Made by a program: the position numbers and the translations under genes. A stretch of DNA of 4,418 nt from a virus (Duplodnaviria > Heunggongvirae > Uroviricota > Caudoviricetes), in the IMG/VR virus record IMGVR_UViG_3300010279_000132, positions 1 through 4,418 of that record. One strand, 5' to 3'. Below, in pieces: positions 1-4,418 of this stretch (its first letter is position 1; each line of letters starts with the position of its first letter). Below the pieces are notes generated by a model. It searched no databases. It was not told where the DNA came from and saw nothing but the letters and a program-made list of their open reading frames with translations.

Positions 1-341
1 GTCAGCCAGTCAGCGCCAGTCATGCGCTTTTCTGCATCGCCATTAGTCCACTTAACCGGTACACCAATAGCCTTCATCGCGATTTCTATTTCCCCGGCAA
101 TGGCGCTTTTTCCGCAACCAGTAAAACCAGAAACAACGACAAGAACTTCGCCTTTGGCTGGTTTTATTTCCCGTGCTTCCAGTTCTGCAATACGCTTTTT
201 GTCTGCTTCCCGTTCATCCAGTAGTGCCAGCACAATCGATGGTGTTACCAGCTCATGGAAAAGGTCCGCGTCAAATCCCCAGTCGTCATGCATTGCCTGA
301 TCTGCCGCTTCACGCAGTGCCTGGTAATTAATTTCGCTCAC
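1..341 (-). CDS. P-loop NTPase, N-terminal 113 codons only; gene continues beyond the window start
   Basis: Minus-strand frame opens with GTG at 341-339, preceded by AGGAGG (348-353) with a 6-nt spacer, and stays open to position 1. Translation VSEINYQALREAADQAMHDDWGFDADLFHELVTPSIVLALLDEREADKKRIAELEAREIKPAKGEVLVVVSGFTGCGKSAIAGEIEIAMKAIGVPVKWTNGDAEKRMTGADWL. A hydrophobic strand (LVVV) followed by GFTGCGKS fits the Walker A pattern GxxxxGK[ST]. Absent from the ORF track, presumably because it is truncated by the window edge. Family not identified. Confidence 0.55.
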   Translation of the reverse strand, partial: MSEINYQALREAADQAMHDDWGFDADLFHELVTPSIVLALLDEREADKKRIAELEAREIKPAKGEVLVVVSGFTGCGKSAIAGEIEIAMKAIGVPVKWTNGDAEKRMTGADWL

Positions 342-582
342 TGGTTGCCTCCTGTTTTTCTGCCTTCAACACCATGCGAGAACCATCATCCAGCTCCCAC
401 GCGATCTCACCACCTTCAGCCATGACCAGTCGCCACACCAATTGAGCAGCCTCATTGGTAACATCACGACCTGGATCATTGCCAACGCGCATACGTCCAC
501 CTTCAACATCGCGCATTTTTGCCAGCATGATAGTTTTTGATAGCGGTGAAAAACCAAGCTGTAGTCGTGCTGAATTACTCAC
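328..582 (-). CDS. hypothetical protein, 84 aa, GTG start
   Basis: ORF-track frame 328..582. GTG start at 582-580 overlaps the TGA stop of the upstream gene (GTGA) and is preceded by AGGAGG with a 6-nt spacer. Its last 14 nt overlap the start of the next gene. No recognisable motif. Confidence 0.55.
   Translation of the reverse strand: MSNSARLQLGFSPLSKTIMLAKMRDVEGGRMRVGNDPGRDVTNEAAQLVWRLVMAEGGEIAWELDDGSRMVLKAEKQEATSERN
337..353. repeat. 17-nt direct repeat, copy 1 (translation-initiation region of the P-loop NTPase gene)
   Basis: Plus-strand CTCACTGGTTGCCTCCT at 337-353 is identical to 578-594. On the minus strand it reads AGGAGGCAACCAGTGAG, i.e. SD + spacer + GTG start + AG. Confidence 0.9.
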
Positions 583-594
583 TGGTTGCCTCCT
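578..594. repeat. 17-nt direct repeat, copy 2 (translation-initiation region of the 84-aa gene)
   Basis: Identical 17-mer CTCACTGGTTGCCTCCT, 241 nt from copy 1. Flanking bases differ on both sides. Confidence 0.9.
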
Positions 595-1052
595 TTGCGA
601 AGCTGGGCGGCGAACTCGTTAAGTGATATGTAGCAATCTCCAAATGTTAACGAACCGCTCGACTGCATATGCTCCATAGCCATCTCCACGCCCTGCGCAC
701 GTACTTCAGCCAGGAAAGCATCGGTGGCTGGGGTTTTGATTTCGTTAAGCGCATCACTGAATCCACCACGCTCCATACCTAGCTCTGCTTCGTAATCGGC
801 ATCGAATGCAGCGTCTTTGCAGAACTTCTTCATCCCCGAACTCTCCGCTGCCAGCGCCGCGCACTTGGCCTCAAGGTTATCAATCGTGATTCCAGCAGAA
901 CGACACTCCCGCAACGCAGCTTCTAGTTTTGATTCAAGTTCACCGAACTTACGGACAAGATATTCAGCGTTTGTTTCGTTAACCTTTAAATCTCGTGGGA
1001 TGCATTTACCTTTCAGAAATCCATCCATCTCAATTAGTGTCATTTGTTTCAT
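579..1052 (-). CDS. hypothetical protein, 157 aa
   Basis: ORF-track frame 579..1052 ([16 protein letters not shown]...). ATG at 1052-1050 overlaps the TGA stop of the upstream small gene (ATGA). Protein-like composition, no stops, no recognised domain. Confidence 0.7.
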
Positions 1053-1213
1053 TTTTTCCCACTCTGCAACATCGCATTCAGATATTTGTTTTGATTTACT
1101 GACGGAAAAGAATTTCTCTTAAGCAATTCCTCTCTCGATGGCATTGGCTTTACGCGTTGGCGAATAATCATTTCTGCCGGAAGAATGCCGGGATTGTATG
1201 CAAGTCCTCTCAT
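1049..1213 (-). CDS. small hypothetical protein, 54 aa
   Basis: ATG at 1213-1211 preceded by TGAGGA with a 7-nt spacer, directly after the stop of the 98-aa gene. Translation [54 protein letters not shown]. It is the 3' part of the 105-aa ORF-track entry 1049..1366, whose 5' part overlaps the 98-aa gene out of frame. Confidence 0.45.
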
Positions 1214-1223
1214 GATAAATTCC

Positions 1224-1520
1224 TCAGTCATTACTGATAGCGCCATAACGAGAGCGATAATTACGCAGGCGCGGGTCGATATATTCAGGGAAGTGGGTAT
1301 ATGTGGCTTTGCGGAATGGTCGGATTGATGTCTGGTAAATTCTCTCTCGTTCTTCTTTCTCTGCAAGCCATATACAGTGGCGAAATTCCTTTTCCTCTTT
1401 CGTTTCCTGCGGTAGAGACATTATCCGGTCGTAGTTTCTTCTGAATTTATCCAGCACCTCCGATACGGAATTGCCGGAACAGCGGCGCGCGTCATCCGCA
1501 CCATACAGAGGCGCTGGCAT
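1224..1520 (-). CDS. hypothetical protein, 98 aa
   Basis: ORF-track frame 1224..1520. ATG at 1520-1518 preceded by AGGAG with a 6-nt spacer, 13 nt after the ssb stop. No recognised domain. Confidence 0.6.
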
Positions 1521-1533
1521 GATTTTCTCCTGA

Positions 1534-2040
1534 TTAAATTGCGTGAATAGCGTGACGAGGGAAGGGGAGAGTTACTGGTGCAAAGGGTATATCGTCGTCA
1601 AAATCCATCGGAGGTTCGTTGTGTTGTGCTGGTGATGATTGCTGCTGTGGCTTCTGTGATTGCCTGCTGGCTGCTTGTTGTTTGCTGTCGCCAATGCCGC
1701 CAAGCATTTGCATCACGCCATTAATTCCGACATGAACCTCGGTTGTGTAACGGTCTTGCCCTGACTGGTCTTTCCACTTTCTGGTTCTCAGCATTCCCTC
1801 GAAATAAATCTGATCACCTTTTTTCACATACTGCCCAACGACCTCAGCCAGTTTCCCGGATACAGCAACACGATGCCATTCAGTCAATTCCTTTTGCTCG
1901 CCAGTATTTTTATCTCGCCATTGTTCTGACGTGGCTATTGTCAGGTTAGCGAACGCTGTTCCTGATGGTGAGTATCGAACTTCCGGGTCTTGTCCTACCC
2001 GACCAAGGATAATCACCTTATTTACGCCTCTGCTTGCCAT
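1534..2040 (-). CDS. ssb: single-stranded DNA-binding protein (SSB), phage-encoded
   Basis: 168-aa product [23 protein letters not shown]...TEWHRV...[19 protein letters not shown]...[13 protein letters not shown] closely parallels E. coli SSB as I recall it: OB-fold N-terminal domain, Gly/Gln-rich linker and acidic DDDIPF motif. ATG abuts the TAA of the upstream recombinase gene (TAAATG). The frame continues 15 codons past DDDIPF (see findings). Confidence 0.93.
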
Positions 2041-2748
2041 TTATGCCACCTGTTTTAGTTCGTTAACTCTGATGTTCACTATCTGAACGCATTTAGCCTG
2101 CTCCTCCTCGTTGCCAGCCATTAATTGCCAGTCACGCTGATAACGCTCGATGAGTTTTTTCTTGTCAGTTTCTGTTGACGCATAATCGCTGAAGTCTTTC
2201 AGGATTTGTTCGCAGTCAACCGATGGAGATTTCTGGTTGGTATCTTCTGGTGATGGTTTGTTATCTGATGCTGGGATTGCCCATCCCGGAAGCGATGGAG
2301 GGAGCCAGTAAAATCCTGTTCCATCCTTCAGTTTTGCCCTGTGCCACCCCTGCTTTTTATCGAGAGATGTTTGTGCGAAACCTTCCTCAAGGTTATACAG
2401 ATACCGACCGATTCCCCACTGAACGGCAGCGCGCTTCATTGCACCGGAACGACCACCTTTGACGGCTTCTACCTGTGTGTTTTCAGCAGCATCCCATTTG
2501 GTTACCCATTCGGAATCAATCTTTATTGATATGCCGCATTCAACGCCGCCGTTGTTGGGAATATCGCGGTATTCATTGCGCCATCCTGCTTTGCCGCAAA
2601 CATCGTCCAGGCGTTTCATGATTGCCCGGTTCGTGACATAAGCCAGCACCATAGCCCACACCTTGCCATCGCGTGTTTTACCGCTTTGCTGTATTCGCCA
2701 TTCGATATCTTCAGGGCTGAATGGCTCATCGAATTTGTTCAAATCCAT
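2041..2748 (-). CDS. Rad52/Rad22-family single-strand annealing protein (Sak-like phage recombinase)
   Basis: 235-aa product. Segments YVTNRAIMKRLDDVCGKAGWRNE and AMKRAAVQWGIGRYLYN resemble conserved blocks of the Rad52 N-terminal DNA-annealing domain as I recall them (Y..R.I..L...FG..GW and KRAL..FGN). RBS GAGGTG with a 4-nt spacer before ATG at 2748. Sits directly upstream of ssb, a typical phage recombination module. Confidence 0.8.
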   Translation of the reverse strand: MDLNKFDEPFSPEDIEWRIQQSGKTRDGKVWAMVLAYVTNRAIMKRLDDVCGKAGWRNEYRDIPNNGGVECGISIKIDSEWVTKWDAAENTQVEAVKGGRSGAMKRAAVQWGIGRYLYNLEEGFAQTSLDKKQGWHRAKLKDGTGFYWLPPSLPGWAIPASDNKPSPEDTNQKSPSVDCEQILKDFSDYASTETDKKKLIERYQRDWQLMAGNEEEQAKCVQIVNIRVNELKQVA

Positions 2749-2756
2749 AATTCACC

Positions 2757-2927
2757 TCAGAATGGACATGGCCCAAGGAAATAACGCTGGTTTAATACTT
2801 CGACTCGGGACAAATTAAGGCATACCCGCATTCCTTCGCGGTCGCCATTATGGCGATACCAGAGAGCTTTCTGCGTGTACATGCGTCTCTGTAACTTGCT
2901 CTCCTTCACTGTGGTTGCAAGTGACAT
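2757..2927 (-). CDS. small hypothetical basic protein, 56 aa (candidate)
   Basis: ATG at 2927-2925 preceded by AAGGAG with a 6-nt spacer; stop TGA at 2759-2757, 8 nt before the recombinase ATG. Translation MSLATTVKESKLQRRMYTQKALWYRHNGDREGMRVCLNLSRVEVLNQRYFLGPCPF. Overlaps the 52-aa candidate by 80 nt in another frame; too short for the ORF track. Confidence 0.4.
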   Translation of the reverse strand: MSLATTVKESKLQRRMYTQKALWYRHNGDREGMRVCLNLSRVEVLNQRYFLGPCPF

Positions 2928-3006
2928 GAATATCTCCTTCGTTATCGATTAAATCTTTCATCTGACGAATGAATTCTTCGTCTGACCAGTTATCTGTAAA
3001 ACTCAT
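2848..3006 (-). CDS. small hypothetical acidic protein, 52 aa (candidate)
   Basis: ATG at 3006-3004 overlaps the TGA stop of the kil-like gene (ATGA). Translation MSFTDNWSDEEFIRQMKDLIDNEGDIHVTCNHSEGEQVTETHVHAESSLVSP; stop TAA at 2850-2848. No properly spaced SD, so it would depend on translational coupling. Confidence 0.35.
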   Translation of the reverse strand: MSFTDNWSDEEFIRQMKDLIDNEGDIHVTCNHSEGEQVTETHVHAESSLVSP

Positions 3007-3155
3007 TTCCTGCGATACCACGGAAGGTTGATAGCTGATTTCATCGCTTTATTTGCTTCAAGCCACATTTTTGAATCACCAATAAATCTGGCTATTACTG
3101 CTTTGTTCTGTGCAGCTCGAAGCATCTTGTGATTGATGGCTATTTCATTGCGCAT
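3003..3155 (-). CDS. kil: Kil-like small protein (putative host cell-division inhibitor), 50 aa
   Basis: ATG at 3155-3153 preceded by GAGGT with a 6-nt spacer. Translation MRNEIAINHKMLRAAQNKAVIARFIGDSKMWLEANKAMKSAINLPWYRRK. Sits immediately 3' of cIII, as kil does in lambda, and is of similar size. The FIGD-containing segment matches my uncertain recollection of lambda Kil; the call rests mainly on synteny. Confidence 0.5.
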   Translation of the reverse strand: MRNEIAINHKMLRAAQNKAVIARFIGDSKMWLEANKAMKSAINLPWYRRK

Positions 3156-3271
3156 AATAAGACCTCAACTCTTTTCCATCCGTCACGTAATTTACGGGTG
3201 ATTCGTTCAAGTAAAGATTCATTTAATTGGAAGGCACCCATGCGAGCGCCTCCCGCGATTGCGTAAATCAT
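3140..3271 (-). CDS. cIII: CIII-family protein (inhibitor of host FtsH/HflB protease), 43 aa
   Basis: ATG at 3271-3269 preceded by AGGAA with a 6-nt spacer. Translation MIYAIAGGARMGAFQLNESLLERITRKLRDGWKRVEVLLCAMK. The stretch ESLLERITRKLRDGWKR matches the conserved central helix of lambda CIII as I recall it, and the N-terminus MIYAIAG parallels lambda MQYAIAG. Too short for the ORF track. Confidence 0.8.
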   Translation of the reverse strand: MIYAIAGGARMGAFQLNESLLERITRKLRDGWKRVEVLLCAMK

Positions 3272-3295
3272 GGGTGGTTCCTTATGTTGGTTTTA

Positions 3296-4264
3296 TTAGT
3301 AGGTTATTTTTGTTGCGAATACTTCGCCTTTTACGATGGCTGTTATGATATTTTTAGCAACATCTTCTGATGCGCCAACCTTGATAAGGTCAGCAAGTAT
3401 TTTGTTATTTACTTCTTTCCGGTGAGCTTTATCCTTTGCTCTACGCTCTTCTTCGTCCTTGATTCTTTTTTCTTCTGCTATTCTGGCTTGCTCTTTTGCT
3501 TCAGCCTCGCGCCGGATTCGTTCAGCCTCCTCCTGTGCTTTTCGGCGTTCTGCTTCAATTGCCGCATGCTTTTCTCTTTCAGCTCGTTCTGCTGCCTCTT
3601 TTGCTTCGCGCTGTGCTCGTTGCTCGGCTTCAATGCGTTCACGCTCTGCACGTTCCGCTGCGGCCTTAGCTTCTGCTTCTCGCCTTGCTGCTGCTTCAAT
3701 TTCGGCTTTTGCCTTTGCTTCGGCTTCTGCTCTGGCTTTCTCTTCAGCTTCTCTTTTTAAGCGTTCTTCATGCTCTCGCTTTTCCTGCTCCGCTTTGAGT
3801 CTTGCCTCTTCTCTTTGGCGGTCAAATTCGCGATCCATCAAAATCGCTATTTCATGGTCAGACTCAATTTGCTTTGCGAGAGCTTCAGCTGCTGCCTTAG
3901 CTTCTTCTTCGGCTTTAATCCGCGCCTGTTCTTCCTCATAATCAGTAAGAGGCTGGCGTGCCTTGGCTTTCAGCTCATCAAGGCGATCACGCACTGTCTT
4001 GCGGTTGGCATCAATTAGCTTTGGAATTTCCTTCAGTTCAGCAACAAGGTCTTTGCCAACACCATCGAGATATGTTTTCGTCTGCGCAACTTTATACGCC
4101 AGAGAAGCGATCTCCTTTCTGCCCTTTGCCGTTGTGATATCAGGCACAAAGGACATAACTTCACGTTCAACCTTTTGAAGGATTTCTTCAATCTGGTCGG
4201 CAGACTGAAATACAGTCATTGCATTTGCTTTTTCAATAACAACTAATTCTGTTACTTCACTCAT
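3296..4264 (-). CDS. hypothetical protein, 322 aa, with a long E/R/K/A-rich charged helical (coiled-coil or single-alpha-helix-like) central segment
   Basis: ORF-track frame 3296..4318. I place the start at the ATG at 4264-4262 (MSEVTELVVIEK...), which has GGAGG (4273-4269) 4 nt upstream; the track's upstream ATG at 4318 has no RBS and would span the terminator hairpin. N-terminal about 130 aa look globular, the middle about 140 aa are E/A/K/R-rich, and the last about 35 aa (NKILADLIKVGASEDVAKNIITAIVKGEVFATKITY) are hydrophobic/amphipathic. No transmembrane segment apparent. Confidence 0.85.
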   Translation of the reverse strand: MSEVTELVVIEKANAMTVFQSADQIEEILQKVEREVMSFVPDITTAKGRKEIASLAYKVAQTKTYLDGVGKDLVAELKEIPKLIDANRKTVRDRLDELKAKARQPLTDYEEEQARIKAEEEAKAAAEALAKQIESDHEIAILMDREFDRQREEARLKAEQEKREHEERLKREAEEKARAEAEAKAKAEIEAAARREAEAKAAAERAERERIEAEQRAQREAKEAAERAEREKHAAIEAERRKAQEEAERIRREAEAKEQARIAEEKRIKDEEERRAKDKAHRKEVNNKILADLIKVGASEDVAKNIITAIVKGEVFATKITY

Positions 4265-4276
4265 ATATCCTCCATC

Positions 4277-4303
4277 AAAAAAATTGCCCTCACATTGGAG
4301 GGC
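4277..4303 (-). terminator. candidate rho-independent terminator (tL1-like) on the minus strand
   Basis: On the minus strand: GCCCUC-CAAUGU-GAGGGC (6-bp stem with 5 G:C pairs, 6-nt loop; plus 4286-4303) followed by AA and seven U (plus 4277-4285). The RBS of the next gene begins 3 nt after the U-run. Confidence 0.55.
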
Positions 4304-4342
4304 AAAGAAGATTTCCAATAATCAGAACAAGTCGGCTCCTGT

Positions 4343-4418
4343 TTAGTTACGAGCGACATTGCTCCGTGTATTCACTCGTTGGAATGAATACACAGTGCAG
4401 TGTTTATTCTGTTGTTTA
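4343..4418 (-). other. possible 3' end of a minus-strand ORF entering from beyond the window (24 codons then TAA at 4345-4343)
   Basis: One minus frame is open from the window edge: KQQNKHCTVYSFQRVNTRSNVARN*. Too short to distinguish from chance. If real, it would be the gene preceding the terminator, the position the N gene occupies in lambda. Confidence 0.2.
4366..4393. repeat. perfect 9-bp inverted repeat with a 10-nt spacer
   Basis: GTGTATTCA (4366-4374) ... TGAATACAC (4385-4393), spacer CTCGTTGGAA. Lies upstream, in transcription sense, of the terminator and the first gene. Function unknown. Confidence 0.6.

Follow-up and report, generated by a model that had tools for sequence, protein, structure and literature searches.

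Bacterial-type single-stranded DNA-binding proteins (SSBs) are homotetramers that bind ssDNA and recruit Exo I, chi, RecQ, PriA and other partners. Solved complexes of the SSB C-terminal peptide with each of these four named partners show its final Phe in a hydrophobic pocket, with the alpha-carboxylate paired to a basic residue, and this C-terminal docking motif (SSB-Ct) is disabled by C-terminal fusions to SSB. E. coli-type SSB (PF00436/TIGR00621) is built from an OB fold, a disordered Gln/Pro-rich linker and an 11-residue acidic tip ending in MDFDDDIPF, which is terminal. The SSB described here has the same OB fold, the same kind of linker and an identical tip, but differs in that 15 residues follow the Phe of the tip.

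Among described proteins, the nearest relatives are the lambdoid SSB-1 proteins of phages Sf6 and ES18, which are of the same lineage and occupy the same slot between an Erf/Rad52-like annealing gene and abc2. Both end at ...IPF because an HNH gene directly follows. In the accessible part of an account of lambdoid Rec modules, these SSB-1 proteins are recognised by homology, without experimental study, and an extended tail is not mentioned (PMC12315714). The SSB of phage HK620 (SSB-2) is likewise a recombination-module SSB with a C-terminal linear motif as partner handle, and stimulation of Sak4 annealing depends on its six terminal residues, NDYPPF (PMC5928155); it differs in that it belongs to another SSB family, its motif is terminal and no extension is described past the aromatic end (PMC5928155). 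Full-text literature searches with the tail peptide strings returned no match, the tail is not described in the papers on HK620 SSB, the epsilon34 genome or DARNA, and a literature search on plasmid SSBs listed no paper that appeared to bear on it. What we describe is a known SSB family with a widespread C-terminal module that has no description in the searchable literature.

Results

Location of the ssb gene

The window, that is, the whole stretch of 4,418 nucleotides that was analysed, carries on its minus strand a lambdoid early-left recombination module with an annealing gene, an SSB gene, abc2 and a DUF2737 gene. The features next to and including ssb are:

2041..2748, minus strand: Rad52/Erf-like single-strand annealing protein (PF04098, E=5e-26)
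1534..2040, minus strand: SSB gene, 168 amino acids plus stop (PF00436, E=1.6e-36; phrog_44, E=1.6e-66)
1224..1520, minus strand: abc2 (anti-RecBCD; PF11043, E=1.4e-60), directly 3' of ssb

The stop of the annealing gene abuts the SSB start (TAAATG), and the Shine-Dalgarno sequence of abc2 (AGGAG, 1527-1531) lies 2 nt past the SSB stop. The counterpart of the annealing protein is annotated as an Erf-like ssDNA annealing protein in the HK75 and Sf6 records. Positions 1400-2200 of the window are ~99% identical to phage HK75; the SSBs of HK75 and mEp235 are 100% identical to the window SSB protein, and epsilon34 has a diverged version of it with the same tail.

Domains of the SSB protein

The protein can be divided into the following segments:

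1705..2040, minus strand: OB-fold ssDNA-binding domain, residues 1-112 (AlphaFold2 and Pfam match)
1615..1704, minus strand: Gln/Ser/Pro-rich disordered linker, residues 113-142 (pLDDT ~30)
1582..1614, minus strand: acidic tip, residues 143-153, identical to the E. coli SSB C-terminus and internal here
1537..1581, minus strand: 15-residue extension, residues 154-168, the conserved tail of mobile-element SSBs
1534..1536, minus strand: TAA stop of the extended SSB; in HNH-carrying relatives, stop of the HNH ORF

PF00436 matches residues 6-104, and TIGR00621 scores the protein at 166.9 bits against a cut-off of 53.95. An AlphaFold2 model of the monomer, made with a 108-sequence alignment, has pLDDT values of ~72-88 over residues 11-110, beta strands between residues 8 and 115, and one helix at residues 63-71, and the N-terminal domain is predicted on this basis to be beta-rich and OB-like. 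Residues 115-168 have a pLDDT of ~30, and the model predicts that the extension is disordered, as expected of a linear motif; structure induced by a partner is not visible in a monomer model. We considered intramolecular docking of the tail on the OB fold, for which the AlphaFold2 model has no confident contact; the occurrence of the tail on carriers of different families likewise speaks against a core-specific contact.

The 11 residues of the tip recur unchanged at the end of an E. coli SSB chain of known structure, 1eqq_A, and a PDB sequence search matched the canonical tip only. The SSB profiles TIGR00621 and NF004972 both end at residue 153, so that the extension lies outside the family models. 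The preliminary description had placed the end of the frame 15 codons past DDDIPF, with the stop at 1536-1534, and the ORF and its coordinates agree with this exactly. It had also argued that the extension does not stem from a single-base change in a stop codon, which holds: the Phe153 codon TTT (1584-1582) is followed by GCA (1581-1579). The free-carboxylate terminal Phe that characterises bacterial-type SSBs is lacking, in that 15 residues stand after Phe153. By domain, linker and tip, the window SSB is a bacterial-type SSB; it departs from that type in that its tip is not terminal.

Access to a canonical product by frameshifting was also considered. The +1 frame after CCC TTT reads, by eye, ...P-L-H-Q-stop, not IPF-stop. 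The junction of tip and extension also makes a P-F-A-P (PxxP) motif; PxxP is a lead from the SSB-linker literature, nothing more.

Conservation and selection

Fifteen random codons contain no stop with a chance of ~(61/64)^15 = 0.49. As a stop-free stretch of this size thus arises about half the time by chance, its length alone is uninformative and the case is made by comparison with other sequences. Among the 120 nearest protein clusters, taken from a collection of 5.8 billion proteins, 111 have an extension of 15 amino acids, one more has an extension cut to 12 and seven end at IPF. Over the 111 clusters, mean column entropy is 0.36 bits in the OB fold, 1.49 in the linker, 0.16 in the acidic tip and 0.47 in the extension; P155 and L158 are invariant, and F160, R162, H163 and I168 are each conserved in >94%. 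Calculated from codon alignments of extended classic SSBs (71 unique coding sequences), pN/pS is 0.22 in the OB fold, 0.57 in the linker, 0.02 in the acidic tip and 0.24 in the extension. For extensions of the PVTLPF (T-type) subtype, pN/pS is 0.085, and an independent scan anchored on FDDDIPF-x-P-x-x-L only gave 0.13 for the PVTLPF subtype. Altogether, these comparisons of sequences indicate that the 15-residue extension is conserved beyond chance and that the peptide is under purifying selection. At the same time, pS of the extension is 0.20-0.30 vs 0.56-0.68 in the rest of the gene, or about a third to a half, and this low value suggests that the uniformity of the 45 nt comes in part from recent DNA exchange at a module joint.

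Distribution of the tail

The source organisms of the clusters include E. coli, Salmonella, Klebsiella, Citrobacter, Enterobacter, Kluyvera, Pluralibacter and Phytobacter. Among the lambdoid relatives, extended forms are present in the window, HK75, mEp235, epsilon34, CP-1639 and ECP1. At the DNA level, the 45-nt tail was found in 26 phage records and in 129 instances among the loci from a scan of IMG/VR. A search of 5,426 complete E. coli genomes found the window-type allele in 269 at a coverage of at least 80% of the query and in 408 when any match was counted; in these genomes it is annotated as plain ssb. A profile search with the 44-amino-acid C-terminal module returned almost exclusively gene fragments.

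As a control, SSBs were collected by an OB-domain scan of genome contigs that yielded chromosomal SSBs only and no prophages. Of these gammaproteobacterial proteins, 73 of 74 end exactly at IPF and one ends at IPW, and in this control the tail is missing from chromosomal SSBs. As for the comparison with phage and host SSBs that had been proposed at the outset, many homologs have a conserved extension. The suggestion made there of a lineage-specific tail is borne out by the 111 of 120 nearest clusters, and the spread of the tail is much broader than a single lineage.

Related tails of 14-15 residues were recovered from IMG/VR by the anchor scan, among them APIGLQYPALLLCI, APIGLMYPRHLINVI, APIGLPFPSHSIYAL and APIGLQEGRLFLHMI, and always stand directly after DFDDDIPF. 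Their consensus is [AS]-P-[IV]-[GT]-L-[PQM]-[FYH]-x3-4, followed by a C-terminus of the form hydrophobic-x-x-hydrophobic; the C-terminal ends of the variants are HAI, YAL, NVI, LCI, HMI and CMG. The window SSB has both marks that we propose for a mobile-element tail, namely an extension after D-[IV]-P-F and a coding locus on a lambdoid module.

The carriers of these tails comprise classic SSBs, including short divergent ones that match PF00436 (phrog_44), DUF669-like SSBs (phrog_743), gp2.5-like proteins (phrog_112), and phrog_2544 and phrog_4477 proteins. By tblastn against cultured phages, the module was found in Vibrio and Aeromonas phages and in lytic coliphages, Salmonella phages and Klebsiella phages of ~140-150 kb, where it was seen in full for Mt1B1_P17; the SSBs with the module include one of a Phapecoctavirus. 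Single Cronobacter, Serratia and Pseudomonas phage records match as well, in most cases over no more than the tip and the initial seven residues of the tail. The tail is not confined to phages. In IncN conjugative plasmids such as p271A and pC349_3, a tailed SSB is encoded beside ardK, anti-restriction genes and a gene for an SprT-like metalloprotease, and Vibrio plasmids have related tail forms. The elements that have the tail, among them temperate as well as lytic phages and the IncN and Vibrio plasmids, belong to Enterobacterales and Vibrionales, and Aeromonadales and Pseudomonas phages each contribute single records. Plain FDD[DE]IPF ends are also common on phage proteins, making the tail a frequent option rather than a universal feature of mobile-element SSBs. 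The comparison shows a tail of fixed length that always follows an intact acidic tip, DFDDDIPF, and is portable across SSB carrier families; its presence on several kinds of carrier gives it the look of a portable linear motif of mobile-element SSBs.

An HNH cassette at the boundary of tip and extension

A secondary finding is the pattern of insertion of an HNH gene at the boundary between Phe153 and the extension:

1579..1584, minus strand: Phe153 codon plus GCA, the empty HNH-insertion site (DNA alignment and junction sequences)

The boundary is occupied in Sf6, IME10, N7, Huey and Bas106 and empty in the window, HK75 and CP-1639. At occupied loci, the SSB ends canonically with ...DDSDIPF or ...DDEIPF followed by a stop, and an HNH-type gene starts 3-15 nt downstream. 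The HNH proteins of Sf6, IME10, N7, Huey and Bas106 end with PDE[EA] followed by the 14 residues of the tail, encoded by the same 45 nt. In the Sf6 record, gp26 is said to share 14 contiguous residues with 'E. coli SSB', and no more is said. At 27 loci the tail was found off an SSB; 25 of these have an SSB ending in IPF-stop 3-15 nt upstream of an HNH start, and two are incomplete. The cassette consists of a stop, a ribosome-binding site and an HNH ORF without a stop of its own, which takes its final 14-15 codons and its stop from ssb. A cassette that has no stop and ends in ssb codons argues for an insertion between the Phe codon and the extension.

The motif HHCDYSKP...WLC..CH..WH is common to 77 HNH homologs; 'endonuclease' appears in the records, and the precomputed Pfam field is empty for nearly all of them. 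Two N-terminal variants of this one family occur at the IPF boundary. Most of the 77 homologs end a few to ~25 residues past a WHKHNKPIY motif, in unrelated sequences, and the tail is found only on those adjacent to an SSB. In addition, the HNH tails copy local variants of the SSB tail, for instance ...HAIYAI and PITL...HAL. Because the HNH tails are limited to neighbours of ssb and mirror the SSB variants, we conclude that the tail belongs to the ssb locus.

The cassette is present in some members of both SSB lineages and absent from others. At the tip codons, occupied alleles (NFDDSDIPF or NFDDEIPF) depart from empty ones (DFDDDIPF-A), and the Huey SSB equals the window SSB up to ...NEPPM, where it switches. 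Altered tip codons fit a protection of occupied alleles from putative cleavage, and the features of the HNH gene fit a free-standing putative homing endonuclease. As with free-standing HNH homing endonucleases, related genomes either have or lack it at a single precise position; it differs from them in that the cassette supplies a stop to ssb and borrows the end of ssb. Two further loci fit a putative homing endonuclease as well. In ES18, an unrelated AT-rich HNH gene starts 38 nt past the canonical SSB stop and the tail is lost, and the lytic phage Mt1B1_P17 has an HNH gene of the family found at the boundary just after a complete extended SSB.

Insertion of the HNH gene yields a canonical-ended SSB together with an HNH-tail fusion, so that capped and uncapped forms of the SSB both exist in nature. 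Sf6, Huey and ES18 live with an uncapped SSB and many phage SSBs are plain-ended, which indicates that the tail is not essential.

Discussion

Altogether, our results establish that the tail is a genuine, selected C-terminal module of mobile-element SSBs and neither an error nor a scar. As to its function, we propose that the free Phe carboxylate bound by the canonical partners is lost through the tail, which would in addition provide a host factor with a second docking motif, a reading to which we assign a probability of roughly one half. In this model, the 15 extra residues bury the carboxylate of Phe153 and docking of canonical partners would be weakened or re-specified, as should follow from the way these partners clamp the terminal Phe by its carboxylate and side chain alike. 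The second docking surface would be formed by the hydrophobic C-terminus together with the invariant P-x-x-L-x-[FY] core, which with the junction reads F-[AS]-P-hydrophobic-x-L-x-aromatic, and the extended SSB, while coating the ssDNA intermediates of the element, would engage a different subset of host factors than the host SSB does. The suggestion of the preliminary description, that host partners may be recruited differently or not at all once the tip is internal, is plausible in the light of established SSB-Ct recognition. Lambdoid phages and IncN plasmids, which have no other genes in common, use the same tail in the same hosts; any partner is therefore most likely host-encoded, and we favour a second docking surface for a host factor over a passive cap or a phage-encoded partner.

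More tentatively, and as a possibility we hold to be less likely than not, tip and tail together may be an unrecognised composite docking motif that gammaproteobacterial mobile elements add to any ssDNA-binding protein. Such a motif might redirect a conserved host hub to the element's own ssDNA or withhold host nucleases and helicases from it; the hub could be a component of the replisome, of replication restart, of repair or of proteolysis, and the HNH insertion might act as a natural switch between capped and uncapped forms.

One candidate motif was rejected. Beta-clamp-binding motifs take the form QL[SD]LF or QLxLxL, as in Hda (QLSLPL) and epsilon (QTSMAF), and have a hydrophobic-x-L-x-aromatic spacing and a C-terminal location in common with the P-V-T-L-P-F and P-I-G-L-Q-Y of the tails. 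The spacing fits, but the Gln that defines position 1 is replaced by the invariant Pro155 in all 111 clusters, and in the scanned variants too, though this codon was fixed by the anchor of that scan; we regard the likeness as a resemblance only.

The main point that a simple disabling of the tip by a cap leaves unexplained is that the internal tip is almost invariant. This near-perfect conservation keeps alive an explanation that we otherwise consider unlikely, in which the tail is a propeptide or a degron: its removal by a protease would unmask DDDIPF at the right time or place, or its hydrophobic C-terminus would drive turnover of the SSB. On this view the tail would serve as a timer and the tip would do the work. 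The internal tip is as strictly kept as in the host SSB (entropy 0.16; pN/pS 0.02), the F-[AS]-P junction is nearly invariant and the C-terminus is always hydrophobic (HAI, NVI, LCI, HMI), loosely like C-terminal ClpX-type tags. In IncN plasmids, moreover, ssb adjoins the gene for the SprT-like metalloprotease, and the HNH endonuclease that takes over the tail could likewise bear one that lowers protein levels. Known ClpX-type degrons include the ssrA-like LAA and MuA-like RRKKAI consensus sequences, and the tail ends, while hydrophobic, reproduce neither; nor is there a match to a protease site or to another known degron consensus. A simple leaving group would also not need the conserved L158 and F/Y160 in the middle of the tail, and no protease is linked to the phage loci.

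Turning to the cap itself, any 15 residues that bury the Phe carboxylate, with no partner of their own, might suffice to keep host nucleases and helicases off the element's ssDNA. The SSB-Ct pockets need a free carboxylate, and the tail is found on mobile elements and never on chromosomal SSBs, as would be expected of such a mask. However, a pure mask does not account for a fixed length of 14-15 residues and for the fixation of P155, L158 and an aromatic residue at 160 across very different carriers, and the tip is retained although its outright loss would be simpler. We consider it improbable.

It is distinctly improbable that the peptide is incidental and that the 45 nt are conserved as a DNA or RNA element, be it a recombination joint between modules, the target of a homing endonuclease or a region of translational coupling. 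The HNH cassette ends at the tail sequence, and right after the stop the downstream module alternates between abc2 and a DnaQ-like exonuclease gene. The 45 nt are 100% identical between phages in which the SSB bodies are ~11-20% different, and the tail has the reduced pS noted above. Against this, the peptide is kept despite up to 6 synonymous changes in 42 positions, the anchor scan, which left the tail free, gave pN/pS of 0.13-0.48, and the protein variants keep a pattern of residues and not of nucleotides. IncN plasmids retain the peptide even though the DNA around its coding stretch is entirely different.

The identity of the 14 final residues and 45 nt in the HNH proteins of Sf6 (gp26), Huey and Bas106 might alternatively suggest that the tail is the natural C-terminus of the HNH protein, fused to SSB by an in-frame deletion and carried along as neutral baggage. 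This is very improbable given that most of the 77 HNH homologs end in unrelated short sequences and have the tail only beside ssb, that SSBs far outside the range of the HNH gene have it, including those of IncN plasmids and gp2.5-like proteins, that the tail is under purifying selection, and that a simple deletion of the Sf6 type would be two bases out of frame. Finally, a sequencing or assembly error that removed a true stop after the Phe, as had been considered initially, has nothing in its favour beyond the prior expectation from E. coli SSB. Hundreds of independent genomes with identical or related tails refute it, and the same frame and tail occur in independent phage isolates, prophages, plasmids and metagenomes.

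Bacterial genome maintenance has its central docking hub in the C-terminal tip of SSB, and a free Phe at the very end is regarded as a defining trait of this tip. Here, a large class of phage and plasmid SSBs keeps a perfect tip that is buried under a conserved 15-residue peptide. About 5-7% of complete E. coli genomes have genes of this extended class, as do IncN resistance plasmids, and current annotation labels such genes plain 'ssb'. The finding points to an unstudied way in which mobile elements may tune the access of host enzymes to their own ssDNA, with a possible bearing on recombineering with phage SSB/annealase pairs, on plasmid establishment and on defences that tell phage SSB from host SSB.

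A putative HNH cassette at the SSB Phe codon

In relatives of the window, a putative HNH endonuclease cassette sits exactly 3' of the codon for Phe153 of the SSB (a protein that binds single-stranded DNA), at the equivalent of window positions 1579–1584, and thus at the point where the acidic tip DDDIPF gives way to the conserved 15-residue tail. The following loci carry it:

L003 (phage Sf6), 1635–2123, HNH cassette
L005 (phage Huey), 1635–2117, HNH cassette
L006 (phage Bas106), 2195–2683, HNH cassette

The cassette comprises a stop, an RBS and an ORF without a stop of its own; in these relatives the HNH ORF reads the SSB tail in frame and ends at the SSB stop. The occupied alleles have variant tip codons, encoding NFDDSDIPF or NFDDEIPF. 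The cassette looks like a homing endonuclease and the window like its empty site.

Mosaic structure and other ORFs of the window

The window (1–4418) is a mosaic of three parts:

2700–4418, about 98% identical to Sf6 and IME10
1400–2200, about 99% identical to HK75, a phage with an identical SSB
574–1530, about 95% identical to ECP1 and mEpX2

The SSB tail coincides with one of the joints of this mosaic, and directly past the SSB stop the relatives have either the anti-RecBCD gene abc2 or a gene for a DnaQ-like 3'-5' exonuclease. Two further ORFs lie in the window:

3296–4318, minus strand, 340-aa ORF
1049–1366, minus strand, 105-aa ORF overlapping abc2

The 340-aa ORF encodes a product with an extreme abundance of Glu, Ala, Lys and Arg, including long runs such as EAEAKAKAEIEAAARREAEAKAAAERAERE, and had no match in Pfam or NCBIfam; at the DNA level it shares about 98% identity with the region containing gene 33 of Sf6, recorded as "similar to phage D3 Orf53". 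The DUF2737 match in the 105-aa ORF is limited to the last 51 residues. The annotated HK75 counterpart measures just 165 nt, so that translation here probably begins at an ATG inside the ORF, near 1216.

Probable homogenisation, and distribution, of the tail

Synonymous divergence (pS) is 0.20–0.30 in the tail codons (1537–1581) compared with 0.56–0.68 in the remainder of ssb (1582–2040), i.e., a third to a half of the value for the rest of the gene. We therefore infer that the 45-nt tail DNA is homogenised between phages, in addition to the selection that acts on the peptide, perhaps via module exchange or endonuclease-driven co-conversion.

Tail-bearing ssb genes are also present on IncN plasmids, where they form part of the ArdK-type region for establishment and anti-restriction:

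L392 (p271A), 3039–4387, tail-bearing ssb region
L393 (pC349_3), 1560–4798, tail-bearing ssb region

On both plasmids, a gene for a SprT-like zinc metalloprotease is convergent with ssb.

Several ORFs contain only parts of these genes. Among the homologs recovered in the HNH search, P0131 and P0134 contain the SSB Pfam domain together with the C-terminal half of the HNH protein, including the tail, while P0144, P0173, P0180 and P0183 combine a partial-length match to the HNH query with a DnaQ-like exonuclease domain (PF16473). All of these proteins are composites of parts of neighbouring genes, probably created by deletions that fused genes lying side by side in decaying prophages. At another comparison locus (L102, minus strand, around 1326), a 38-aa ORF upstream of an exonuclease gene ends in the tail and lacks an SSB body that can be recognised; a deletion or a frameshift seems to have left the tail alone.

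Endonuclease genes at the 3' end of ssb

In ES18 (L129, 1167–1726), the SSB has a canonical end and the tail is missing; an AT-rich HNH endonuclease gene, unrelated to the Sf6 type and T7 gp7.7-like according to the record annotation, begins 38 nt after the ssb stop. The final ~28 nt of ssb are identical between ES18 and Huey despite the different inserted genes. For endonuclease genes of different kinds, the 3' end of ssb seems to act as a hotspot. The 151-kb lytic coliphage Mt1B1_P17 (L394, 1652–3050) encodes a 310-aa SSB-like protein with the tip-plus-tail type of end and, 59 nt past its gene, a 135-aa HNH protein of the family of Sf6 gp26, the annotated endonuclease next to Sf6 ssb. The Sf6 gp26-type HNH family appears to accompany ssb genes across very different phages.
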